From a virus (Duplodnaviria; Heunggongvirae; Uroviricota; Caudoviricetes): a stretch of DNA of 12,469 nt. Positions 218-12,469 of this stretch are shown in pieces. The DNA lies in IMG/VR virus record IMGVR_UViG_2663763280_000001. One strand, 5' to 3'. The stretch's first letter is position 1; each line of letters begins with the position of its first letter. The translations under genes and the position numbers were made by a program. The notes below the pieces were generated by a model. That model saw only the letters and a list, made by a program, of their open reading frames with translations, did no database searches and had not been told where the DNA came from.

Positions 218-913
218 CACCTGCTGGCTGCCGAACTGTTCCGAGTCCACCTGCACGCCGACCAGTGCCGTGTTCGGGTAGCACTGTTTCACATCGATGA
301 TTTCGGTGTATGACGACCAGAGCGTTTTGTTCTGCAGCTGGTCTGTGGTGCTGTCCGGCGTCATTCTGCGCATCCGGATATTAAACGGGCGCGGCGGCAG
401 GTTATCCACCAACACCGAGGCCAGATACTGCGAGGTGGTTTTGCCCTTAATGGTGATGTCTTTTTCCGTCACCCAGCCACCATTACGCTGTATCTGAACC
501 AGCAGGCGAACTTCCGACGGATTCCAGTCCCCCTTTGAGGTGGTTTCCACCAGTGCCTGCACACCGAAGGTAAAGCGCAGTCGGTCGATGTTTGCCGACG
601 TGATGGCGCGGGTGATCGGCGTGTCGTATTTCACTTCCGTACCCAACACCGTCTCGGAGCCGGAGGATTCAAATCCCTCCGGCGGAGTCTGCTCCTGCTC
701 ACCAGCCCGGAACACCACCGTGACACCGGCGATGTTGGTATTCCCATCACTGTCCAGCACCGACGTACTGTTCAGCAGCACGCTTTTTAATCCATCCACC
801 GGACCTTCAATCGGCCCTTCACTGATGGCATCAATCACACTCAGCAACTGCGTGGACTTCAGGTTGTCCTTCGCTTCGCGCGGGGTATGCCCCTTACTGC
901 TTCCTTTACCCAT
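218..913 (-). pseudogene. J: Tail tip / central fibre protein J, N-terminal 232 codons only (lambda J is about 1132 aa)
   Basis: ATG at 913..911 with AGGA upstream. Translation [49 protein letters not shown]...QFGSQQV follows the lambda J N-terminus, then changes abruptly to sodA upstream sequence after codon 232. Confidence 0.85.
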
Positions 914-935
914 TCCTCACGCTCCATAAACGACA

Positions 936-955
936 AAACCGCCCGCAGGCGGTTT
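936..955 (-). terminator. Perfect 8-bp stem / 4-nt loop hairpin in the I-J intergenic spacer (AAACCGCC-xxxx-GGCGGTTT), U-rich 3' side on the minus strand
   Basis: Inverted repeat seen directly between the I stop (976..974) and the J start (913). Function not established. Confidence 0.3.
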
Positions 956-973
956 CACATAAAACATTTTGCA

Positions 974-1645
974 TCAGCGACCAATCACCACAACCTGACC
1001 ACCGTCCCCTTCGTCTGCCGTGCTGATCTCCTGAGAAACCACGCGTGACCCCACGCGCATTTCCCCGTACAGAACAGGCAGAACATTGCCCTGGGCAACC
1101 ATGTTATCCAGTGAGGAGAAATAGGTGTTCTGCTTACCGTTATCCGTTGTCTGTGTACGGGGAGTTCTGGCTTTCGGTGCCAGCATCTGCGCCACACCAC
1201 CGAGCACCATACTGGCACCGAGAGAAAACAGGATGCCGGTCATACCACCGGCCCCAATGGCTGCCCCCCATGCTGCAAGGGTGGCTCCGGCGGTAAAGAA
1301 TGATCCGGCAATGGCGGCAGCCCCCAGGACAATCTGGAATACGCCACCTGACTTGGCCCCGGCGACTCTGGGAACAATATGAATCACAGCGCCATCAGGC
1401 AGAGTCTCATGTAACTGCGCCGTTAACCCGGACGTGCTGACGTCCCGCCCGGCAATCCGTACCTGATACCAGCCGTCGCTCAGTTTCTGACGAAACGCCG
1501 GGAGCTGTGTGGCCAGTGCCCGGATGGCTTCAGCCCCCGTTTTCACACGAAGGTCGATGCGGCGACCAAATCGTTGTAAATCCCCGTAAAGGCAGATGCG
1601 CGCCATGCCCGGTGACGCCAGAGGGAGTGTGTGCGTCGCTGCCAT
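974..1645 (-). CDS. I: Tail tip assembly protein I (223 aa)
   Basis: ATG at 1645..1643, stop at 976..974; 223 aa as in lambda I; overlaps the K 3' end by 103 nt as in lambda. Confidence 0.92.
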   Translation of the reverse strand: MAATHTLPLASPGMARICLYGDLQRFGRRIDLRVKTGAEAIRALATQLPAFRQKLSDGWYQVRIAGRDVSTSGLTAQLHETLPDGAVIHIVPRVAGAKSGGVFQIVLGAAAIAGSFFTAGATLAAWGAAIGAGGMTGILFSLGASMVLGGVAQMLAPKARTPRTQTTDNGKQNTYFSSLDNMVAQGNVLPVLYGEMRVGSRVVSQEISTADEGDGGQVVVIGR

Positions 1646-2286
1646 TTGTCGGTGTACCTCTCTCGTTTGCTCAGTTGTTCAGGAATATGGTGCAGCAGCT
1701 CGCCGTCGCCGCAGTAAATTGCGGCGTGATTCGGCACCGATGAACCAAAACAGCACAGCAGCACATCGCCCGGCTGTGCCGCTGACAACGGCACCTGATA
1801 CAGCCCTGTGGCCTCCAGATTATCCAGATAGAGATTCTGGCCGTTACGCCACCAGTCATCCTCACGATGAAAGGCCGGCATCTCAATCCCCGCCAGATGA
1901 TAAGCATCCCGGAACAGTGTGTAACAGTCCGTCACACCGTGCTCAAAGCGCCGCCCGGTGAGATGCGGCACACAGCGGAACTTATGAATCGTCCCCCGGC
2001 AGACCAGCCACCACGGCAAATCACTCTGCACCTGCAGCCGCCGGTCGGCCTCACTCAGCCAGGGCAGACCACCGGGGTGGCTGTGGACCAGCGCCACAAT
2101 CTCACCCTGCATTTCTGCCTGCAGCCAGTCTTCCGGCGACATACGGAAATACGCCTCCGGCTCACCGGAGATATTCACGCAGGGGAAATATCTTTCCCCC
2201 TCCGGCGTGCTTACCACGAAGCCGCACGACTCCGCTGGCGCACATCGCCGGGCGTGCGCCAGAATCGCTGATTCTGTCTGTGTCAT
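1543..2286 (-). CDS. K: Tail tip assembly protein K, JAMM/MPN plus NlpC/P60-type. Open frame is 247 aa from the ATG at 2286; the canonical 199-aa lambda start corresponds to the ATG at 2142
   Basis: Frame is open from the ATG at 2286 (5 nt after the L stop) to the stop at 1545..1543. An internal ATG at 2142 has GGAGG 11 nt upstream. JAMM motif HSHPGGLPWLSEAD is seen directly. Confidence 0.85.
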   Translation of the reverse strand: MTQTESAILAHARRCAPAESCGFVVSTPEGERYFPCVNISGEPEAYFRMSPEDWLQAEMQGEIVALVHSHPGGLPWLSEADRRLQVQSDLPWWLVCRGTIHKFRCVPHLTGRRFEHGVTDCYTLFRDAYHLAGIEMPAFHREDDWWRNGQNLYLDNLEATGLYQVPLSAAQPGDVLLCCFGSSVPNHAAIYCGDGELLHHIPEQLSKRERYTDKWQRRTHSLWRHRAWRASAFTGIYNDLVAASTFV

Positions 2287-2291
2287 GGGAT

Positions 2292-2990
2292 TTACTGCGA
2301 AAGTTTGTTAATGGAAAGGAAGCCGCCAAAGTTGCCGACGTTATTGCGGAACTTACAACCGCTCAGGCATTTGCTGCATTTATCCTTCGTGATATCGGAC
2401 GTTGGCTGGTCATATTCATCCGCGACAGCCGGACCGCTATAACCGCACTCGTCACCGCGATAGGTCCAGGTGCAGGTGTTGGCCAGCATGATACGTCCCG
2501 GAAAAACAGCGCCATCCGTTTCCGTCGGCGTGGACAGTACAAAGGAGGCACTCACCGCGCTCAGTTCGCTGCACTGCTCAATGCGCCAGCGGCTGATCAC
2601 CTCCTGCTCCGGATCGGCGCCACTGTTTCCGTTGACGAAGTTCACCGCATCCAGAAAACGGGCGTAAACCTTACGCCGGACCACCGTTCCACCGACCAGA
2701 CTCTGCAGATCTTCCGCCATCCCGGTGACCATACCGTACAGGTTAGAAACCGTCAGTGTGGGGCGCGTACTGGTGCCTTTGCCATTCAGTTCAAAACCAC
2801 TCCCCTGAATGGGATACGGCTGATACTGTCGCCCCTGCCAGGTGACCGGCTCACCTTTTTCGTTCTGCTCATTACAGAAAAAATAACGTTCTCCACCGAC
2901 CTCTGTCAGGTCGATTTCCCAGAGCACCACGCTGGCCGACTGCTCCGCACGGGTGCATTCATTCAGTGTTTCCTGCCGGATATCCTGCAT
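2292..2990 (-). CDS. L: Minor tail protein L (232 aa)
   Basis: ATG at 2990..2988 overlaps the M stop (ATGA); stop TAA at 2294..2292; length and sequence as lambda L. Confidence 0.92.
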   Translation of the reverse strand: MQDIRQETLNECTRAEQSASVVLWEIDLTEVGGERYFFCNEQNEKGEPVTWQGRQYQPYPIQGSGFELNGKGTSTRPTLTVSNLYGMVTGMAEDLQSLVGGTVVRRKVYARFLDAVNFVNGNSGADPEQEVISRWRIEQCSELSAVSASFVLSTPTETDGAVFPGRIMLANTCTWTYRGDECGYSGPAVADEYDQPTSDITKDKCSKCLSGCKFRNNVGNFGGFLSINKLSQ

Positions 2991-3319
2991 CAGTTCACCA
3001 CCTGTTCAAACTCTGCGCTGAACTCAACACGCAGCATACTGACCCGCGACGACCATTTTGCGCAGGTCACCTTTATCTGCCGCCACTCATAAGGCGGCGT
3101 CCACAGAAAGGCTTTCCAGCCCCCGTGCTCTTCCAGAAACGACTCCAGTACCGTGGCCTCCTCACGGGGGACAGAAAGCGTCACGCTGTACGTTTTCAGG
3201 TTGGCATTCAGCCCGGCAGGCGCTCGCTGGGAATAGCCATCACCAAAGCGCACCTTTCTTACAGAAGGGGCCGAAGCCACATCCATACCGGGTTTCACTT
3301 TCCAGCGGAAGGTTTTCAT
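2990..3319 (-). CDS. M: Minor tail protein M (109 aa)
   Basis: ATG at 3319..3317 overlaps the H stop; 109 aa as lambda M. Confidence 0.92.
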   Translation of the reverse strand: MKTFRWKVKPGMDVASAPSVRKVRFGDGYSQRAPAGLNANLKTYSVTLSVPREEATVLESFLEEHGGWKAFLWTPPYEWRQIKVTCAKWSSRVSMLRVEFSAEFEQVVN

Positions 3320-5895
3320 CGTCCACCTCCGGAGAACAGACCACCATCGCGCATCTGTGCCTGGATTTCATCACGGGCACCCTTGCGGGCCATGTCATAC
3401 ACCGCCTTCATCATCTGTGGACCTGGCAGACCATTCGTACCGTCGTTCTGAATCACCACGTGATTGTTCTGATTAAAATTAATGCCTTCAGCCCGCCGCA
3501 TCTGCGCCGGACTTCCGGCACCGCCCACATAACCACCTTCCGCATAGCCCCGCATCAGGCGGTACAGGTTGCCGACACCAATCCGGCTGGTTGCCTCCTT
3601 CGTGAAGACAAATTCACCACGGTGAACAATCCCCGCTGGCTCATATTTGCCGCCGGTTCCCGTAAATCCCCCGGTCGCAAAATGGAATTTCGCCGCAGCG
3701 GCCTGAATGGCTGTACCGCCTGACGCGGATGCGCCGCCACCAACAGCCCCGCCAATGGCGCTGCCGATACTCCCGACAATCCCCACCATTGCCTGCTTAA
3801 GCAGAATTTCTGTCATCATGGACAGCACGGAGCGGGTGAAGCTGCGCCAGTTCTGTTCACTGCCGGTCAGCATCGCCGCCATATTCTGCGCAATACCATC
3901 AAAGGTCTGCGTGGCTGCACTTTTAACCTGCGACATACTGTCCGTGGCACTCTCTTTCCACTCGCTCCAGCCGGACCTGAGGCCTGCCATCCAGTTCCCG
4001 CGAAGCAGGTCTTCAGCCGCCCAGGTCTTTTTCTGCTCTGACATGACGTTATTCAGCGCCAGAGGATTATCGCCATACTGTTCCTTCAGGCGCTGTTCCG
4101 TGGCTTCCCGTTCTGCCTGCCGGTCAGTCAGCCCCCGGCTTTTCGCATCAATAGCGGCCCGTTTTGCCCGTTGCTGCTGTGCGAATTTATCCGCCTGCTG
4201 CGCCAGCGCGTTCAGGCGCTCCTGATACGTAACCTTGTCGCCAAGTGCAGCCAGCTGGCGTTTGTACTCCAGCGTCTCATCTTTATGCGCCAGCAGGGAT
4301 TTCTCCTGTGCAGACAGCTGGCGACGTTGCGCCGCCTCCTCCAGTACCGCGAACTGACTCTCCGCCTTCCACAAATCCCGGCGCTGCTGGCTGATTTTCT
4401 CATTTGCTCCGGCATGCTTCTCCAGCGTCCGGAGTTCTGCCTGAAGCGTCAGCAGGGCAGCATGAGCACTGTCTTCCTGACGATCGCCCGCAGACACCTT
4501 CACGCCGGACTGTTTCGGCTTTTTCAGCGTCGCTTCATAGTCCTTTTTCGCCGCCGCCATCAGCGTGTTGTAATCTGCCTGCAGAATTTTCCCGTCCTTC
4601 AGTGACTTGTTCAGTTCTTCCTGACGGGCGGTATATTTCTCCAGCGGCGTCTGCAGGCGTTCGTAAGCCTTCTGCGCCTCTTCGGTATATTTCAGCCGTG
4701 ATGCCTCAGACTCGGCCCAGTCCTTTGCTGCCATCTCTCTGGCCTTTTCAAGATCGGCCTGCAACGTGGCGGCTGAAAGCCCAAGTTGCGCATTCGCTCT
4801 CTTCTCCCATGCTCCCCGGAGATTGGCAAGAAATGCTGAGGTTTTACCGCGCCGGTGGCTCCGGCTCTGATACCACTGCCATTTTTTGTCCGCCTCATCA
4901 AAAGCCTTTTCTGCTTTCTCCAGCATTCCCTGGGCAGTGTCCGGGCGACCAATATCCAGCACCGAATCCCACATGGATTTGAATGCCCGTGCTGTCCTGT
5001 CTGCCCAGGTCTCCAGCGTGCCCATGTTCTCTTTCAGGCGGCGGGTCTGGTCATCAAACCCTTTCGTTGCGGCCTCGTTCGCCGCCTGCAATGCCCCGGC
5101 TTCATCTCCGGAACGCTGCAACTGAGCAACATACGCAATCTGCTCCGCCGTCACGTTATGGAACTGACGTGCCATCGCTGTCAGTCCCGACGTCGGGTCT
5201 GTGGTCAGCTTCCCGAAGGCTTCAGCGACCTTGTCCACCTCCACGCCGGATGCAGAGGAGAAACGCGCCACACTCTGGCTGATCGCCTCAAACTGCTCAC
5301 CACCACGCACACCGGCATTCACCAGCGCCGTCAGTGACTCGCTGGTCTGGTTAAACGTCAGCCCTGCCGCCTGCCCGGCTCTGGACAGGACCAGCATACG
5401 ATCTGCCGTCAGTCCCGCCTGATTGCCGGAAAGGACCAGCGTTTTGTTGAAATCGGACAGGGTTGAGTTGCCCTGATACCAGGCATACGCCAGCGCACCG
5501 GTCGCCACCGCCAGCGAGGTGGCCCCCACCATCGGCAGGGTGATCGCACCGGCAAGCCCCCTGAACATGGGGATCATCCCGCCGAAGGAGTCCTTAACCT
5601 GACCACCCTGTTGCAGCAGGATCAGCCACGGGCTTTGCCCGCCTGCAAGCTGCGTGGCCACGTCGGTGAACTGTGCAGGCAGCATACGCATGGCGGCTTT
5701 ATACTGCCCGACGGAAATCCCCGCTTTCTGTGCAGCCAGCGCCTGTCGGCTCAGCGACTGTTCAACGACTGCCGCTGTTTTTTTCGCATCAGTTTCCGTA
5801 CCGGAAAAATGACGCCTGACTCTGGCCATCTGCTCGTCAAATCTGGCCGCATCCAGACTTAAATCAACGACCAGATCGCCTACCGGTTCAGCCAT
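3316..5895 (-). CDS. H: Tail tape measure protein H (859 aa here)
   Basis: ATG at 5895..5893 overlaps the T stop by 8 nt as in lambda. Long, coiled-coil-rich ORF with a Gly-rich C-terminal region, starting MAEPVGDLVVDLSLDAARFDEQ. Confidence 0.92.
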   Translation of the reverse strand: MAEPVGDLVVDLSLDAARFDEQMARVRRHFSGTETDAKKTAAVVEQSLSRQALAAQKAGISVGQYKAAMRMLPAQFTDVATQLAGGQSPWLILLQQGGQVKDSFGGMIPMFRGLAGAITLPMVGATSLAVATGALAYAWYQGNSTLSDFNKTLVLSGNQAGLTADRMLVLSRAGQAAGLTFNQTSESLTALVNAGVRGGEQFEAISQSVARFSSASGVEVDKVAEAFGKLTTDPTSGLTAMARQFHNVTAEQIAYVAQLQRSGDEAGALQAANEAATKGFDDQTRRLKENMGTLETWADRTARAFKSMWDSVLDIGRPDTAQGMLEKAEKAFDEADKKWQWYQSRSHRRGKTSAFLANLRGAWEKRANAQLGLSAATLQADLEKAREMAAKDWAESEASRLKYTEEAQKAYERLQTPLEKYTARQEELNKSLKDGKILQADYNTLMAAAKKDYEATLKKPKQSGVKVSAGDRQEDSAHAALLTLQAELRTLEKHAGANEKISQQRRDLWKAESQFAVLEEAAQRRQLSAQEKSLLAHKDETLEYKRQLAALGDKVTYQERLNALAQQADKFAQQQRAKRAAIDAKSRGLTDRQAEREATEQRLKEQYGDNPLALNNVMSEQKKTWAAEDLLRGNWMAGLRSGWSEWKESATDSMSQVKSAATQTFDGIAQNMAAMLTGSEQNWRSFTRSVLSMMTEILLKQAMVGIVGSIGSAIGGAVGGGASASGGTAIQAAAAKFHFATGGFTGTGGKYEPAGIVHRGEFVFTKEATSRIGVGNLYRLMRGYAEGGYVGGAGSPAQMRRAEGINFNQNNHVVIQNDGTNGLPGPQMMKAVYDMARKGARDEIQAQMRDGGLFSGGGR

Positions 5896-6322
5896 ACCGG
5901 ACTCCTCCTGCGATCCCTTCTGATACTGTCATCAGCATTACGTCATCCTCCGTCATGTCCGCCACATCCGGGGAAGCGGGGATAACTTCATTCCCGTCCG
6001 GGCCAAAACGAACGCCTCCGGCAAGCCCTGCCGCTTTCTGCATCAGCACATCATCTTCAGGCTCTTCGTCAGCCTCGCGCCGGTTCAGCAGACTGAAATC
6101 CAGCGGATGCATCTCCGGATCGCTGAAAAACAGGCTGAGCACGGTGTACGTCAGCCCGGAAAAGTGCATATCCAGCAGAACATCATGAAAATAATGGGTA
6201 CTGTAAAAGCGGTGCCAGTCGGCATACTCCGTGGATGACATCCCGGCAAGCATGGCGCGCCAGTCGGGTCGCCCCATCTCACGCGCCAGTTTCAGGGCAA
6301 AACTCAGCTCACCGTCGAACAC
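5888..6322 (-). CDS. T: T segment of the G-T tail assembly chaperone, expressed only as a G-T fusion by -1 frameshift (no independent start)
   Basis: Open frame in the -1 frame relative to G, beginning at the slippery site and ending at TGA 5890..5888; product ...FDGELSFALKLAREMGRPDW... as lambda gpT. Confidence 0.85.
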   Translation of the reverse strand: MFDGELSFALKLAREMGRPDWRAMLAGMSSTEYADWHRFYSTHYFHDVLLDMHFSGLTYTVLSLFFSDPEMHPLDFSLLNRREADEEPEDDVLMQKAAGLAGGVRFGPDGNEVIPASPDVADMTEDDVMLMTVSEGIAGGVRYG

Positions 6323-6726
6323 TTTCCCGCAGAAACAGGCTCTGCAGGCCCGGCGTCCTCTGCCTGTTCAGGAGCATCATTCACCACAAACTCATACATA
6401 CCGGACAGCCGGTACACCACGTTTTCAGCATGAGAAATTGCCTCTGTGGGCCAGGTGGTAAGCACTTCCTGCTCAATCTGTTTAACGGCTTCATTCATGG
6501 AAGGCAGCTTTGTCTTCTTCGGATGGTTATGCCACAGGGACATCGCCACCAGAAACGCGCCGGTTCTGATGGCGTCTTCCACAGTAAACTTCCGGTTGCT
6601 GTCTGACTCCGCCTGTTCTGCCTGCCGTTTCATCAGGGCGAGATGCTCAATACGCTGCAGGGCTGACAGTTCAGAAAGCGTGACGGTCACACCGTTATGT
6701 TCAAATGATTCGGTTTTCAGGAACAT
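6304..6726 (-). CDS. G: Tail assembly chaperone G (140 aa)
   Basis: ATG at 6726..6724, stop TGA at 6306..6304; C-terminus ...PAEPVSAGKCSTVS as lambda gpG. Confidence 0.92.
   Translation of the reverse strand: MFLKTESFEHNGVTVTLSELSALQRIEHLALMKRQAEQAESDSNRKFTVEDAIRTGAFLVAMSLWHNHPKKTKLPSMNEAVKQIEQEVLTTWPTEAISHAENVVYRLSGMYEFVVNDAPEQAEDAGPAEPVSAGKCSTVS
6322..6328 (-). promoter_or_regulatory. Programmed -1 ribosomal frameshift slippery heptamer G GGA AAG joining G to T
   Basis: Minus-strand GGGAAAG at 6328..6322 sits at the Gly-Lys codons 6 codons before the G stop; the -1 frame continues into the T reading frame. Confidence 0.8.
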
Positions 6727-6741
6727 CGCTGACTCTCCGGA

Positions 6742-7482
6742 TTAACTGGCGGTGACGTTGATTTCTGCAACCGCAGCAAACTCACCATTACCGGATACGA
6801 CCGGAATGTTGACCTTGCCTGCAGCAACACCTTTCACGGTGATGGTCATACCACTGACCGACACGGTGGCTTTTGTTTTATCCGCAGACACCGCACGGAA
6901 GCTCTTGTCGGTTGCGCCATCCGGCTGGAATGCCACGGTCAGCGTGGTGCTCTGCCCTTTCACTACGGAAGCACTGGCGGGTGTCACCGTCATGCCGGTT
7001 GTCGCCGTCACCGTGCTGCGATCTTCTGCCATCGACGGACGTCCCACATTGGTGACCTTCACCGTGCGGGTAATCACTTCCTTCGCCGTCACCGCCTTAC
7101 CGATACTGCTGACCCAGCCACGGAACACATCGACCGTGCCGTTCGGGAAGCGGATTTTATAGGCACGGGTATCGCCTTCATTAAACCACGCCAGCAGCGC
7201 CTGCTGCCCCTGCTCTCCGGGCATCCACGCCAGCGTGAAGCTGGTATCTCCAGCAGATTTCTGCCCCTGCCCGGTCGCAGTCCAGTCTGCATCTTCATCA
7301 TCGAGATAGCTGTCGTCATAAGACTCAGCGGTCAGTTCGCCGGGCGTCAGGTCTTTAACTTTTGCCAGACGCGACCAGTCAACGTCTGAAAGCGGATTCG
7401 CATAAGGGTCACCACTCCCCTTATAAACCCACAGGGTGGTCCCGGCCCCTTTCACCGGCATTACAGGATTTGGTACAGGCAT
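6742..7482 (-). CDS. V: Major tail tube protein V (246 aa) with C-terminal Ig-like domain
   Basis: ATG at 7482..7480 with GAGGA upstream; starts MPVPNP...; C-terminal about 90 aa rich in T/V/S, consistent with an Ig-like fold. Confidence 0.92.
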
Positions 7483-7489
7483 AGCGTCC

Positions 7490-7885
7490 TCACATTTCAT
7501 AGGTAATGACATAAGTCAGATCGGCTGAACTCCACAGGCCCGCATCATCGTCGCGCCGATAGTCATAGCCGCTGGTCACCATACTGGTGATCAAATCTGA
7601 CAGTGCCGGGATATCACTCATCACCGGATAAATCCGGGACTCCATCCACGCATCCAGCTCTGAATCCGGCACCTGAGCAGGCAGGAAAACTTCAATATGC
7701 AGCTCCGCCTGCCAGGTATCGCTGTCCAGCTCTTCGCCCGTGTATTCAGCGCCGGTGAGATAAACGGCAATTGCCGGAAAATCTTCCTCATCAAAAACAG
7801 CGGGGCGACCATCAAAAAGCGTCGCCCCGGTGTCATGCTTCTCCAGTGCATCCAGTACGGCTGCTCGGAGTTCAGTATGTTTCAT
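7490..7885 (-). CDS. U: Tail tube terminator protein U (131 aa)
   Basis: ATG at 7885..7883 overlaps the Z stop (ATGA); 131 aa as lambda U. Confidence 0.92.
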
Positions 7886-8460
7886 CGCTTTATTACCATC
7901 CTCAGTTGATGCTGCAGCGCATAGCCCAGCTCTTTCGGAAGACGCTCACGCCGTATCCGCTCAATATTCTGTTTAAACGCCGTGGTCAGCGGCACCGCCA
8001 TCGGGATTTTCACCACATCAATGGGGTAACGATTTTTCCCGGCCACACGCTGCATGACATGCCAGCGGCCATTTTTCAGTTGCTGAATAAACGCGCCGGG
8101 AATACGACGGTTTCCCACCACAAGCACGCTGCCGCCACCTTTCAGGGCTGAACGCTGCCCCTTTTTACGACGCCTGCGTCGGGACAGGACAATCCGCGCG
8201 TTACCCAGCTTTATTACGGGCAAATCCCCCCGGTTAACCTTGATTCTGGCCTGCGGATTTTTGACCGTGGCCCTTTTCAGCCTGGCCCTTTCCTTTACCA
8301 GTTTCCGGCGTACCTTTGTCTCACGGGCAACCTGTGACGCCGACTGCGATATCGCGGATGAAGCAACGCGGTTAATGGCCATTGCGGCGGCACCGGGCAC
8401 CGCCGTTCTGCTGATACGGCTGAGGTTTTCAACGGCCTGCTCAAGACCTTTTATGGCCAT
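7882..8460 (-). CDS. Z: Tail completion protein Z (192 aa)
   Basis: ATG at 8460..8458; 192 aa; basic Arg/Lys-rich middle region as lambda Z. Confidence 0.92.
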   Translation of the reverse strand: MAIKGLEQAVENLSRISRTAVPGAAAMAINRVASSAISQSASQVARETKVRRKLVKERARLKRATVKNPQARIKVNRGDLPVIKLGNARIVLSRRRRRKKGQRSALKGGGSVLVVGNRRIPGAFIQQLKNGRWHVMQRVAGKNRYPIDVVKIPMAVPLTTAFKQNIERIRRERLPKELGYALQHQLRMVIKR

Positions 8461-8471
8461 ACATCCCCCTT

Positions 8472-8825
8472 TCAGCGGCGACGGTTAACGGCAGGCGGTA
8501 CGCCCCGCCCAAGCCAGAGATGACAGCTTCCGCCATCATCTGGCGAAATCCGGTCTATCCAGAAGTTTTCCTCACCGATGGTCAGCGTGTCGCCGCGCCG
8601 CAGCTGCCGCACATCATCAGTCCGGACAAACAGGGACGGGCTGGAGCCTTCAACGCGCACGCCCTGTCCGGCATAGCTGATATTTTCAGGGTCATCAAAA
8701 ACACCACGTATCACAGCACCGGACTGCTCACCGGATGTCATGGTGGCTGACGTTCCCATGTACCCGCGTATCGTTTCATCGGCGCGGGCAATGGCAGCAT
8801 CGAACAGGTTATCGAAATCAGCCAC
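8472..8825 (-). CDS. FII: Head-tail joining protein FII (117 aa)
   Basis: Start codon here is GTG (8825..8823) with GGGAGG 5 nt upstream; product MADFDNLFDAAIARADETIRGY... as lambda FII. Confidence 0.9.
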   Translation of the reverse strand: MADFDNLFDAAIARADETIRGYMGTSATMTSGEQSGAVIRGVFDDPENISYAGQGVRVEGSSPSLFVRTDDVRQLRRGDTLTIGEENFWIDRISPDDGGSCHLWLGRGVPPAVNRRR

Positions 8826-8836
8826 AGCGCCTCCCG

Positions 8837-9232
8837 TTATTGCATTCTGGCCAGGCCGCGCTCTGTCATTTCAGCTGCCACACCGGCAGAGACACGGAAC
8901 GCCGTTCCCGGCAGCACAAATGCCACAGGCTCATCCCGCGTGGCGTGAAGTGCATCAGTATGCAGCGTCACCAGTGCCACGACCGTGACCAGAGCAGCCG
9001 TATCAATCACGGTATCCGGCTGCGCTGATACCACCTCATTTTCATGTCCGGTCAGCGCATTTTCCGGGCTGACAGATGTGTCCTGACCGGCAGCGTCATC
9101 CGTGTCATCAAGCTCCTCTTCCAGCTCTGCCACACGGAGCACCAGTTCTTCTTTCGTCCCCGTCAGGCTGACATCACGGTTCAGTTGCTCACCCAGCACC
9201 TGAAGACGGGCAATCAGTTCATCTTTCGTCAT
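8837..9232 (-). CDS. FI: DNA-packaging / head completion protein FI (131 aa here)
   Basis: ATG at 9232..9230 preceded by GGAGGAG; product MTKDELIARL... ending ...EMTERGLARMQ. Confidence 0.9.
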   Translation of the reverse strand: MTKDELIARLQVLGEQLNRDVSLTGTKEELVLRVAELEEELDDTDDAAGQDTSVSPENALTGHENEVVSAQPDTVIDTAALVTVVALVTLHTDALHATRDEPVAFVLPGTAFRVSAGVAAEMTERGLARMQ

Positions 9233-9253
9233 GGACTCCTCCACAGAGAGAAA

Positions 9254-9271
9254 ATGGCCCCGAAGGGCCAT
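9254..9271 (-). terminator. Terminator-like hairpin between E and FI: 7-bp stem ATGGCCC/GGGCCAT with UUCG tetraloop, followed by UUUCUCUCU
   Basis: Minus strand reads TAA-TC-ATGGCCC-TTCG-GGGCCAT-TTTCTCTCTG-TGGAGGAG-TCC-ATG; seen directly in the 41-nt spacer. Confidence 0.4.
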
Positions 9272-9273
9272 GA

Positions 9274-10299
9274 TTACGCCAGTTGTACGGACACGAACGC
9301 ATCAGGGTCAGCCAGCAGCATCAGCGGTGCTGACTGAATCATGGTGAACTCACGCGCCGGATCGCCGGTGGTCACCCAGTTTTTCGGGTAGCGGGCAGAG
9401 GCGTTAATACCTTCGCGCTGTGCGTCCGCATCCTGAATGCAGCCATAGGTGCGCAGACCGCGTGCCTGAGTGTTCCCCAGCACCATCGTGTTGTCCGGCA
9501 GGAAGTTCTTTTTGACGTCGTTTTCCACGTACTGTCCGGAATACACGACGATCGCCGTATCGCCATACATCCCCTTATAGGACACCGCTTCGCCCAGGTC
9601 TTTTACCGCTGTCTCCAGCTCGGAATTAGAGCCGCGACGGGTATCCAGCTTCTCCTTGACGGCTTTGAAGGAACGGAACAGCGCCCAGCCTTTCGGATCA
9701 AACACGATGATATTCACCACACCGCTGGCGTTCAGCGCGTAGGCTTCGATATCGTCGGTCGGGTCATACGTGGACTTGTCACGCTTGCTCCACTCCGTAC
9801 CGCCGGACTGTGTGATGTTGTTCGCCGCACTGCGGCCCATATCCACCTCAACCGGATCGAAGGCTTCACCGGTCATGGTGTATTTGCCCTTAAGCACAGC
9901 AGAAACTGCCTGCATCTCTTCGACCTGAGCAATGGCCAGCTCTTCGTCTCGCATGTTCTGCATGATGATGCGACGGCGGCGGTAAGCCGGGTCCGCCAGA
10001 TTCTGCGGATCTTCATCCGGCAGGCGACGCAGGGTCATCTGCGGATTCACCTCATGCTTGGGTTTGACATATCCCGGCGTAAATTCAGAGGTGGAGCCGC
10101 CACGGGAACGGATAACCTCACCGGAAACAATCGGCGAAACGTACAGCGCCATGTTTACCAGTCCCGGAATTTGTGAGAGATAGACTTTCTCCGTGGTGAA
10201 GGGATAGCTCTCACGGAAAAAGAGACGCAGAAACAGCGGATCAAACTTAAATTTCTGCTCATTTGCCGCCAGCAGCTGGGCGGTTGTGTACATCGACAT
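9274..10299 (-). CDS. E: Major capsid protein E (341 aa)
   Basis: ATG at 10299..10297 (MSMYTTAQLLAANEQKFKFDP...), stop TAA at 9276..9274; 341 aa as lambda gpE. Confidence 0.93.
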   Translation of the reverse strand: MSMYTTAQLLAANEQKFKFDPLFLRLFFRESYPFTTEKVYLSQIPGLVNMALYVSPIVSGEVIRSRGGSTSEFTPGYVKPKHEVNPQMTLRRLPDEDPQNLADPAYRRRRIIMQNMRDEELAIAQVEEMQAVSAVLKGKYTMTGEAFDPVEVDMGRSAANNITQSGGTEWSKRDKSTYDPTDDIEAYALNASGVVNIIVFDPKGWALFRSFKAVKEKLDTRRGSNSELETAVKDLGEAVSYKGMYGDTAIVVYSGQYVENDVKKNFLPDNTMVLGNTQARGLRTYGCIQDADAQREGINASARYPKNWVTTGDPAREFTMIQSAPLMLLADPDAFVSVQLA

Positions 10300-10312
10300 A
10301 AAAAAATCCCGT

Positions 10313-10337
10313 AAAAAAAGCCGCACAGGCGGCCTTT
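10313..10337 (-). terminator. Intrinsic-terminator-like element between D and E: GC hairpin (GCCGC-CTGT-GCGGC) followed by T7
   Basis: Minus strand reads ...AAAGGCCGCCTGTGCGGCTTTTTTTACGGGATTTTTTTATATG(E); stem-loop plus U-tract seen directly. Confidence 0.4.
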
Positions 10338-10354
10338 AGTGATGAAGGGTAAGG

Positions 10355-10687
10355 TTAAACGATGCTGATTGCCGTTCCGGCAAACGCGGTCCGTTTTTTC
10401 GTCTCGTCGCTGGCAGCCTCCGGCCAGAGCACATCCTCATAACGGAACGTGCCGGACTTGTAGAACGTCAGCGTGGTGCTGGTCTGGTCAGCATCAACCG
10501 CCAGAATGCCAACGGCAGTACCGTCGGTGGTGCCATCCCACGCAACCAGCTTACGGGTGGAGGTGTCCAGCATCAGCGGGGTCATTGCAGGCGCTTTCGC
10601 ACTCAATCCGCCGGGCGCGGTTGCCGTATGTGCCGGGTCACTGTTGCCCAGCGGCTGGTAATGGGTAAAGGTTTCTTTGCTCGTCAT
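10355..10687 (-). CDS. D: Capsid decoration protein D (110 aa)
   Basis: ATG at 10687..10685 ([27 protein letters not shown]...), stop TAA at 10357..10355. Confidence 0.93.
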
Positions 10688-10696
10688 AAACATCCC

Positions 10697-11302
10697 TTAC
10701 ACTGGTGTGTTCAGCAAATCGTTAACGGCATCAGATGCCGGGTTACCTGCAGCCAGTGGTGCCGGTGCCCCCTGCATCAGACGATCCAGCGCAGTGTCAC
10801 TGCGCGCCTGTGCACTCTGTGGTGCAGCTGCCAGAATGCGGCGGGCCGTTTCCACGGTCATACCGGGGGTTTCGGCCAGCACACGTGCCTGTTCTTCGCG
10901 TCCGTGAGCTTCCTCACAGTTGAGGATCCCCATAATGCGGCTGTTTTCTGCCGCAACCGCAGCGGTGATCTGCGCGTTCACGTCCGGCTGCGCCGCGCTG
11001 GCGTTTTCGCCCTCCGTCGCTTGCACCACGTCAGTAACGTCAGCCTGCGAAGCAGTGGCTGAAACAGTTGTTGATTGAGTCTCTTTGGTCATTCGCCCTC
11101 CTGAGAGACGGGATTTACGTGCATCCAGTGCATCACGCATAACGGTGATCGCATCGGTGCTGTTGACAAGTTCATCAGCCAGTCCGGCATCAATGGCCTC
11201 CTGACCGCTGTACATTGCAGCCTCGGTATCCAGCACAGCCTGCACGGACAGGCCGGTATATGCCGACACCTTCTGCGCAAACATCCGGCGGGTTGCATCC
11301 AT
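10697..11302 (-). CDS. Nu3: Capsid scaffolding protein Nu3, in-frame internal start within C (C codon 239), co-terminal with C
   Basis: Internal ATG at 11302..11300 (MDATRRMFAQKV...) in the C frame, giving 201 aa; the nested arrangement is known for lambda. Confidence 0.75.
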   Translation of the reverse strand: MDATRRMFAQKVSAYTGLSVQAVLDTEAAMYSGQEAIDAGLADELVNSTDAITVMRDALDARKSRLSGGRMTKETQSTTVSATASQADVTDVVQATEGENASAAQPDVNAQITAAVAAENSRIMGILNCEEAHGREEQARVLAETPGMTVETARRILAAAPQSAQARSDTALDRLMQGAPAPLAAGNPASDAVNDLLNTPV

Positions 11303-12016
11303 CCGGGACTGCAGTGTCTCCCGGACATCACCCGGTAGATGGCTGTAGGGGTTGCCATCCACCTTATGGCTGCCGCTGTAAATCAGCGTGATTTCCACGC
11401 CCTGTTTCTCCAGCGCAGCGCCGTAATTACTGTGAGCCATCATGACGCCGATGGAGCCTGTCCGGGCGGTCTGCGTGACCAGACGCCGGGAGGCGGCGCT
11501 GGCAAGCAGCTGACCTGCACTGCAGTTCATGTCGTTGGCCAGCGCCCATACCGGCTTTATGTCACGCACACGGGCGATGATGTCAGCACAGTCAAATGCT
11601 CCCGCCACCATCCCGCCCGGTGTGTCCATATCGAGCAGAATGCCGTCCACCATCGGATCGCTGGCAGCCTGTTGCAGACGAGCGATAATGCCGTTGTAAC
11701 CGGTCATTCCCGAATACGGCTGCAGCGCCCGCGTCCGGCTGACCAGCGTACCGGACACCGGCAGCACGGCGATGCCGTTCATGACCTGATAACTGCGGGC
11801 CTGTCGTGGTCCGTCATCATCACCGGATAACGCCAGCGCCGCGGGTGCCTCTCCGGCAGTCAGGCTATCGCCGGATACTGCATCCGTCAGGCGACTGATC
11901 CCAAGCTGGCCTGCAAGCGCACAAAAGAAAACCCGCGCATAGGCGGGTTCAAGCATCAGCGGCTCATTAAAAGCCATGCTGGCAATATGCGGGAGATTAC
12001 GCAGCTCTGCTGTCAC
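10697..12016 (-). CDS. C: Capsid assembly protease / minor capsid protein C, S49 (SppA-like) family (439 aa)
   Basis: GTG start at 12016..12014 with GGAGGAG upstream, overlapping the end of B by 20 nt as in lambda; product MTAELRNLPHIASMAFNEPLMLEP... Confidence 0.9.
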   Translation of the reverse strand: MTAELRNLPHIASMAFNEPLMLEPAYARVFFCALAGQLGISRLTDAVSGDSLTAGEAPAALALSGDDDGPRQARSYQVMNGIAVLPVSGTLVSRTRALQPYSGMTGYNGIIARLQQAASDPMVDGILLDMDTPGGMVAGAFDCADIIARVRDIKPVWALANDMNCSAGQLLASAASRRLVTQTARTGSIGVMMAHSNYGAALEKQGVEITLIYSGSHKVDGNPYSHLPGDVRETLQSRMDATRRMFAQKVSAYTGLSVQAVLDTEAAMYSGQEAIDAGLADELVNSTDAITVMRDALDARKSRLSGGRMTKETQSTTVSATASQADVTDVVQATEGENASAAQPDVNAQITAAVAAENSRIMGILNCEEAHGREEQARVLAETPGMTVETARRILAAAPQSAQARSDTALDRLMQGAPAPLAAGNPASDAVNDLLNTPV

Positions 12017-12209
12017 TCTTCTCCTCCTCTGTTGATTGTCGCAGTCCGGATTCAAATGCCGCAGCCGCCCAGGCGGGCGGTTTAAGACCGGCTGCACGGC
12101 GCTCCATCGTTTCACGGACCTGCTGGGCAAAAATTTCCTGATAGTCGTCACCGCGTTTCGCGCACTCTTTCTCGTAGGTGCTCAGTCCGGCTTCTATCAG
12201 CATCACAGC
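11997..12209 (-). pseudogene. B: Portal protein B, C-terminal ~71 codons only; 5' part of the gene replaced by unrelated DNA
   Basis: ...AVMLIEAGLSTYEKECAKRGDDYQEIFAQQVRETMERRAAGLKPPAWAAAAFESGLRQSTEEEKSDSRAA-stop matches the lambda portal C-terminus as I remember it. Upstream the frame loses resemblance and hits an in-frame TGA (12395..12393). Confidence 0.8.
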
Positions 12210-12469
12210 AACAAAGTCACGCTTAAAACACAGGAGCATCTCGATCGCTGCCTCACTTGCCGCAATTGTGAAACCACCTGTCCTTCTGGTGTGCGCTATC
12301 ACAATTTGCTGGATATCGGGCGTGATATTGTCGAGCAGAAAGTGAAACGCCCACTGCCGGAGCGAATGCTGCGCGAAGGATTGCCAGATCTTTCAGGGTC
12401 GCCAGCGCGCCATGTTCTGCCATCTGCCGTTATCTCCTGGGTTATGACACTGTCGGGAAAATACGCTCC
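12210..12469 (+). pseudogene. glcF: Internal fragment of a GlcF-like (glycolate oxidase Fe-S subunit family) gene; no start in view, runs off the window end
   Basis: Plus-strand frame reads NKVTLKTQEHLDRCLTCRNCETTCPSGVRYHNLLDIGRDIVEQKVKRPLPERMLREG..., with a canonical 4Fe-4S C-x2-C-x2-C-x3-C-P motif at 12249..12284. Assignment to glcF is from memory, not a search. Confidence 0.55.

Follow-up and report, generated by a model that had tools for sequence, protein, structure and literature searches.

Gene K of this lambda-like prophage very probably comprises 247 codons, and the 48 N-terminal codons by which it exceeds the classical lambda annotation complete a JAMM/MPN metalloprotease domain (Table 1). 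In the window, by which we mean the whole stretch of DNA analysed (12,469 nucleotides), the late (head and tail) genes of the prophage lie as an operon on the minus strand, and the gene order H-M-L-K-I-J, found both in the window and in an identical prophage annotated in RefSeq, matches the position of lambda-type TAPK genes between L and I/J. In the list of open reading frames and in the sequence itself, the K frame encodes 247 residues beginning MTQTESAILAHARRCAPAESCGFVVSTPEGERYFPCVNISGEPEAYFRM. As the initial annotation had claimed, this frame is open for 48 codons upstream of the lambda start, up to an ATG that lies 5 nt past the L stop. The lambda start, which that annotation had placed at ATG 2142 with a product of 199 residues, is codon 49 of the window gene and aligns with the annotated K start of J02459 (14276..14875, 199 aa). 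A 48-codon open stretch alone is unremarkable in GC-rich DNA, and the extension is significant because of its homology rather than the openness of the frame. The earlier suggestion that the K product would more likely be about 247 residues long is favoured independently by profile matches, the structural model, homologues and the codon pattern.

Table 1. Features of the K region, in coordinates of the window.
Feature	Coordinates	Strand	Description and basis
K	1543..2286	-	247 codons + TGA; tail tip assembly protein K; open reading frame list, Pfam PF14464 and PF00877
K domain layout	1543..2286	-	JAMM/MPN+ N-terminal, NlpC/P60 C-terminal
N-terminal extension, 48 codons	2143..2286	-	Helix 1 and first two strands of the MPN fold, P-x-E-x-C-G motif; peptide spans MTQTESAILAHAR.. 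to ..YFPCVNISGEPEAYFR
Glu19 codon (GAG)	2230..2232	-	Upstream JAMM glutamate, putative catalytic; aligned to the 2KKS Glu
Zinc-binding part of JAMM motif (predicted)	2044..2085	-	H68-S-H70-x7-S78-x2-D81; read from sequence
Prok-JAB (JAMM/MPN+) domain	1975..2280	-	Residues 3-104; Pfam PF14464, Foldseek
NlpC/P60 (C40) cysteine peptidase domain	1615..1956	-	Residues 111-224; Pfam PF00877, 48 bits
Cys121 codon (TGT)	1926-1924	-	Triad completed by His187 and His199
L-K spacer (ATCCC), 5 nt	2287..2291	-	Between L TAA (2294-2292) and K ATG (2286-2284)
G missing from reference	2152..2152	-	Absent after J02459 base 14266
Internal GGAGG and ATG	2140..2158	-	GGAGG (2158-2154), ATG 2142-2140 (Met49) 11 nt on; classical 199-aa start
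L	2292..2990	-	Tail tip protein, 232 aa; upstream of K
I	974..1645	-	223 aa in classical annotation; downstream of K, overlapping the K 3' end

The Prok-JAB profile distinguishes the two lengths of the protein. Pfam PF14464, which has a gathering score of 25 bits, matched the 247-residue K with 52.3 bits (residues 3-104, profile positions 3-112 of 114), whereas the 199-residue form reached 23.3 bits, under the cut-off, and covered profile positions 63-112 only, in line with the earlier objection that a start at ATG 2142 leaves too short a sequence for the fold. The 48 residues of the extension alone matched Prok-JAB with E = 5.8e-5 over profile positions 3-41. Downstream, the NlpC/P60 profile PF00877 (gathering score 23) was matched in full, with 48 bits over profile positions 1-105 of 105. 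The JAMM motif E-x(n)-H-S/T-H-x7-S-x2-D, as defined in PMC300881, is present as E19, H68-S69-H70, PGGLPWL, S78, EA and D81. Its HxH portion, previously noted as directly visible, reads HSHPGGLPWLSEAD at residues 68-81, and the glutamate that had been placed about 50 residues ahead of it is E19, located 49 residues before His68. K residues 7-105 can be aligned with 2KKS, a JAMM protein of solved structure (phmmer to 2kks_A, E = 1.3e-5), such that P-N-E-A-C-G of 2KKS aligns with P-A-E-S-C-G of K, and the 2KKS Glu stands opposite E19.

Structure prediction points in the same direction. An AlphaFold model of K, computed from an input alignment of 27 sequences with at least 67% identity that excluded the distant phage homologues, has a mean pLDDT of 84.8; within it the extension forms a helix (residues 3-15) and two strands (19-27 and 30-35), with residues 1-40 at pLDDT 87-95. 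When the model was compared with the PDB using Foldseek, its N-terminal half matched Rpn11 (4cr2_V, 4ocm), PfJAMM1 (5ld9), CSN5 (9egl_E) and AMSH (3rzu) with a probability of ~1.0, and its C-terminal half matched LytE, MepS and Acd33800. Removing the extension would deprive the predicted MPN fold of helix 1, the first two strands and the catalytic Glu. Pfam, the 2KKS alignment, the AlphaFold model and Foldseek agree with the proposal that the extension completes the JAMM/MPN domain, and we consider it established that a catalytically competent JAB domain, its catalysis being putative, requires these 48 residues. K has in common with the JAMM/MPN+ proteins Rpn11, CSN5, AMSH, PfJAMM1, AfJAMM and 2KKS the E...HxH-x7-S-xx-D motif and the predicted MPN fold, but it differs from them in sequence (13-25% identity by Foldseek) and in the fusion of its JAB domain to NlpC/P60. 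Unlike the JAMM/MPN+ deubiquitinases of ubiquitin signalling, K acts in virion assembly, with gpI as its predicted substrate.

The extension is conserved well beyond the lambda group. Used as a tblastn query, residues 1-99 (the extension and the next 51) matched 1184 phage records, and in most of the matches listed the alignment starts at query residues 1-12. Eight distant phages (Mannheimia, Burkholderia, Pseudomonas, Synechococcus, Vibrio, SSU5, SSL-2009a and T1-like) have the same L-K-I/J gene order and encode K homologues of 235-265 aa, which start between an 8-nt overlap with the L stop and a 19-nt gap after it. When these eight were aligned with K from the window (28-51% identity), seven of the 27 invariant columns fell in the extension (I8, P17, E19, C21, G22, N38 and F47), and the NlpC/P60 triad of C121, H187 and H199 was likewise invariant across the nine sequences. 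The JAMM residues E19, H68, S69, H70, S78 and D81 are invariant in 9/9 distant and 27/27 close homologues. As evidence that would speak against the longer frame, the initial annotation had named homologues whose conserved domain begins at the equivalent of ATG 2142; what we found is that K starts near the L stop in all eight distant phages and that residues of the extension are invariant.

The extension also evolves as coding sequence. In comparisons with two Stx-phage relatives, 11/18 and 14/17 of the nucleotide changes in the extension are at third codon positions, and the ratio of synonymous to nonsynonymous codon changes is 9:5 and 12:3, compared with 46:27 and 50:25 in the rest of K. The substitution pattern in the extension is therefore that of coding sequence and is similar to that of the remainder of the gene. 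Position 49, the classical initiator methionine, shows no such constancy: codon 49 is ATT or ATC (Ile) in Stx phages, the 27 close enterobacterial homologues have M in 13, I in 13 and L in one, and distant homologues have I, L or M. Since Stx phages and half of the close relatives carry Ile at this position, the short form is impossible there.

Two observations on K homologues stand apart from these comparisons. In phage 2851 (NC_049943.1, 1-400), an antirepressor (Ant) gene, not L, lies upstream of K, and K starts MLYSNILAHARR..., with the first five residues different and the remainder of the extension kept; this is a mosaic junction right at the K 5' end. In addition, at least five database proteins of 311-431 aa look like L-K or K-I fusions, combining PF05100 or PF06805 with PF14464 and PF00877. 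Because most of them are single-member clusters, they probably stem from prophage copies that are frameshifted or misassembled, although genuine TAPI fusions exist (Iyer et al., PMC1779556).

We propose that K is most likely translated from ATG 2286 by coupling to the termination of L, a start site that comparative evidence supports. ATG 2286 has no Shine-Dalgarno sequence (predicted anti-SD pairing +0.7 kcal/mol), and initiation there is therefore presumably coupled to L termination. A start 5 nt past the L stop fits a tightly packed operon: in the RefSeq annotation of the identical prophage, H/M, M/L, T/H and Z/U overlap by 1-8 nt, and the 199-aa start would leave a 149-nt gap between L and K, compared with 60 nt for the largest other intergenic gap in the operon. 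ATG 2142, by contrast, follows a GGAGG at 11-nt spacing with a predicted anti-SD pairing of -9.5 kcal/mol, a site that OM418625 annotates as an RBS, and the strength of this internal Shine-Dalgarno probably led the annotators of 1982, like some gene callers, to ATG 2142. The classical annotation, in which ATG 2142 is the K start and is preceded by 144 nt that go untranslated and are open by chance, draws on this same GGAGG, on the 199-aa form annotated in J02459 and several lambda-derived records (OM418625, HK630), and on four 199-aa models from some gene callers among the homologues listed. We nevertheless regard it as extremely unlikely to be right, as the supposed spacer encodes the most conserved part of the JAB domain, including the invariant E19, and changes in the manner of coding sequence, Met49 is replaced by Ile in many relatives, the product would hold half an MPN fold, and the 247-codon frame is open even in the records that annotate 199 aa. 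Given a strong internal Shine-Dalgarno and none at ATG 2286, some internal initiation in lambda-group phages is possible, and both forms could be made there, with translation of the 247-aa protein coupled to L and a 199-aa isoform, with NlpC/P60 only, nested inside it. In favour of such a pair, the internal SD-ATG is retained in lambda, HK630, DE3 and this prophage, and some TAPK versions do consist of the NlpC/P60 domain only (Iyer et al., PMC1779556). It is unlikely, however, as the codons GAG-GCG (Glu-Ala) account for the GGAGG, which Stx phages keep although they have ATT or ATC in place of the ATG, Met49 is not conserved, the 11-nt spacing is above the optimum, and the short product would start in the middle of the JAB fold rather than near residue 105, where one domain gives way to the other. 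We give only a slim chance to the more specific notion that the lambda-group GGAGG-ATG (2158-2140) is a real second start whose 199-aa product, devoid of a functional JAB, modulates gpI processing; a nested pair of this kind may be likened to lambda C/Nu3 or S107/S105.

The reference lambda sequence departs from this frame by one nucleotide. The initial annotation had stated that reference lambda has one nucleotide fewer between L and K, which would put the extension out of frame, and aligning the L-K spacer with lambda and relatives located this gap at a G: in a five-way alignment, J02459 alone lacks it (GGAGGC[G]TATTTCC), and the frame is intact in the other sequences. The missing G lies 10 nt 5' of the annotated K ATG of J02459, within its annotated L-K spacer, and its absence shifts the extension out of frame, such that the J02459 ORF from ATG 14133 encodes 45 residues as in the window and then continues out of frame. 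The match length is 920 nt in J02459, NC_001416, OR474059 and OR974322 and 921 nt in the other lambda-like records; the G is present in PV340536, LC730321, KT232076, OM418625-7, DE3, DN1, O276, HK629 and HK630, and also in lambda imm21, imm434 and h434 imm21. GC-rich sequence such as GGAGGCG is prone to band compression on gels. The missing G is most likely a gel-reading error made in 1982 in this GC-rich stretch. Four records without the G could also mean that the lambda cI857 S7 stock used for sequencing had truly lost this one base pair, with a JAB domain that is dispensable in the laboratory. This is very unlikely: apart from the compression-prone context, NC_001416 derives from J02459; OR974322, with feature coordinates identical to those of the reference and poultry swabs given as its source, looks like a reference-guided assembly of control DNA; and OR474059 is an unverified engineered strain, so that the latter two look seemingly copied from the reference and not independent. 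The remaining lambda and lambda-derived records listed have the G, as does lambda gt10, whose MutaMouse transgene was compared with the reference in a whole-genome study that records 14266 C>CG among the constitutional differences (PMC6760142). The textbook 199-aa lambda K is thus an annotation artefact, caused by one G missing from J02459 together with a fortuitous in-frame GGAGG-ATG. Our literature search for an explicit correction of lambda K yielded nothing beyond the incidental 14266 C>CG listing, and no paper was found that states gpK to be 247 aa.

Other signals were considered for the stretch between L and ATG 2142. A programmed -1 frameshift at GGGAAAG 2192-2198, within the extension, was rejected as the heptamer occurs at a chance-level count (two copies in the window versus 1.69 expected) and is out of phase with the K frame, and also because the window needs no frameshift. 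The second copy, at 6322-6328 on the minus strand, falls inside the G/T overlap (~6304-6322 by RefSeq mapping) and is what we take to be the known lambda G/T -1 frameshift site. An Rfam search with the supposed spacer gave no match, and a promoter and terminator scan of window 1400-3100 placed none within 2143-2291; elsewhere in 1400-3100 there are two promoter-like and three terminator-like sites, compared with 0.6 and 1.2 expected from shuffles, the nearest terminator-like site being a weak 6-bp hairpin at 2340-2324, inside L. The plus-strand ORFs 1867..2271 and 2280..3092 are antisense to conserved coding sequence and were treated as chance ORFs.

Initiated at ATG 2286 in coupling with L termination, K would yield a protein of 247 residues that serves tail-tip assembly, is non-structural and combines two peptidase domains. 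Residues ~3-104 are predicted to form a complete JAMM/MPN+ zinc metallo(iso)peptidase, in which Glu19 would act as general base, His68, His70 and Asp81 would bind zinc and Ser78 would stabilise the intermediate, and residues ~111-224 are predicted to form an NlpC/P60 cysteine peptidase with Cys121, His187 and His199. K was listed as a JAMM protein in 2003 (PMC300881), and Iyer, Burroughs and Aravind (2006) described TAPK as JAB plus NlpC/P60, encoded beside TAPI, whose N-terminal domain is ubiquitin-like, ends in a conserved Gly and was predicted to be cleaved there by the JAB domain (PMC1779556). The next gene, I, encodes gpI, whose N-terminal domain is of this ubiquitin-like type and which has been proposed as the substrate of K (Iyer et al. 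2006, PMC1779556). On the model of these authors, the JAB domain of K would detach that domain, and what remains of gpI, its C-terminal part, would be the plug observed in the tail tip. We hold cleavage of gpI by the K JAB domain to be an even prospect at best. Virion data from lambda are consistent with the prediction: gpK was undetected in virions by mass spectrometry or cryo-EM (PMC10721106; PMC12617516), and of gpI only residues 135-223 were modelled, where they plug the lumen of the tip (PMC10721106). That the cryo-EM maps do not show the N-terminal side of gpI could, however, reflect disorder instead of cleavage. In the F-type pyocins, deletion of PA0639, a gpK homologue, leads to tip-less tubes (bioRxiv 10.64898/2026.02.24.707460). 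Recent cryo-EM papers still call the function of gpK unknown (PMC10721106; PMC12617516), and our literature search found no report of gpK activity.

Among the nearest known systems, lambda gpK (J02459 AAA96551, 199 aa) is encoded in the same L-K-I-J order by L-K-I DNA that is 99.5-99.6% identical, but as deposited it corresponds to residues 49-247 here and lacks residues 1-48 owing to the missing G. Prophages in E. coli chromosomes, NZ_AP045177.1 among them, match window 218-12209 with 100% identity. The RefSeq protein WP_023568777.1 (247 aa, 744 nt) has the same sequence, start and length as K in the window, 5 nt after L, yet its name, 'C40 family peptidase', covers C40 (NlpC/P60) only, with no mention of JAB. 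The lambda record PV340536.1 annotates K with the same start and length (744 nt), again 5 nt after L. K is a typical member of the TAPK family, with the same two-domain architecture and an adjoining gene for the ubiquitin-like TAPI (PMC1779556). PA0639 of the Pseudomonas aeruginosa F-type pyocin cluster, absent from mature particles, is a gpK homologue according to its authors and belongs to a tailocin, not a phage.

The 247-aa K is already the prevailing annotation, and the finding presented here is correct and already known. The exact 247-aa protein occurs on 474 contigs, compared with two for the exact 199-aa form; 247 aa is the commonest length among the homologues listed, and Stx-phage records annotate K as 744 nt. 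Its value is one of curation, since J02459, NC_001416 and entries copying their K coordinates still carry the truncated K. A structural-bioinformatics survey by Goulet et al. (2020), which used gpK in its 199-residue form, reported no domain other than the peptidase domain, at residues 52-182 (PMC7291167). Models, expression constructs or mutants of lambda gpK that are built from the reference entry would contain only half of the MPN fold. To test the long-standing prediction that K processes the gpI ubiquitin-like domain, one first needs the correct 247-aa protein.

The 5' end of the neighbouring gene I presents the reverse problem of annotation. RefSeq, PV340536 and KT232076 start gene I at GTG 1546, which overlaps the K stop by 4 nt and yields a protein of 190 aa, whereas the classical start is ATG 1645, with 223 aa. 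On the 223-aa form, the Pfam profile Lambda_tail_I covers positions 2-83 at residues 14-97 with 100 bits, and on the 190-aa form only positions 26-83 with 68.8 bits. In six distant phages, the I homologues have N-termini that line up with Met14 (ATG 1606), residues G21, F26 and G27, invariant with respect to the six, are encoded upstream of GTG 1546, and by both the profile and these homologues the ubiquitin-like domain of gpI begins ~20 residues upstream of GTG 1546. The 5' end of gene I (window 1544-1645, minus strand) thus seems to be truncated by current pipelines, and the real start is probably ATG 1645 or ATG 1606, in which case K and I overlap by 64-103 nt.

Two further features of the window lie outside the K region. 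The E. coli prophages and phages that match best by megablast align no further than window 218 and 12209, even if they are 100% identical in between, which suggests mosaic junctions near the window ends (1-217 and 12210-12469), in the J and portal genes. The product of the tape-measure gene H acts as the tail length ruler. In this prophage H (3316-5895, minus strand) encodes 859 aa, compared with 853 aa in lambda (PMC12617516), and by its length-ruler role the longer protein would predict a tail slightly longer than that of lambda.
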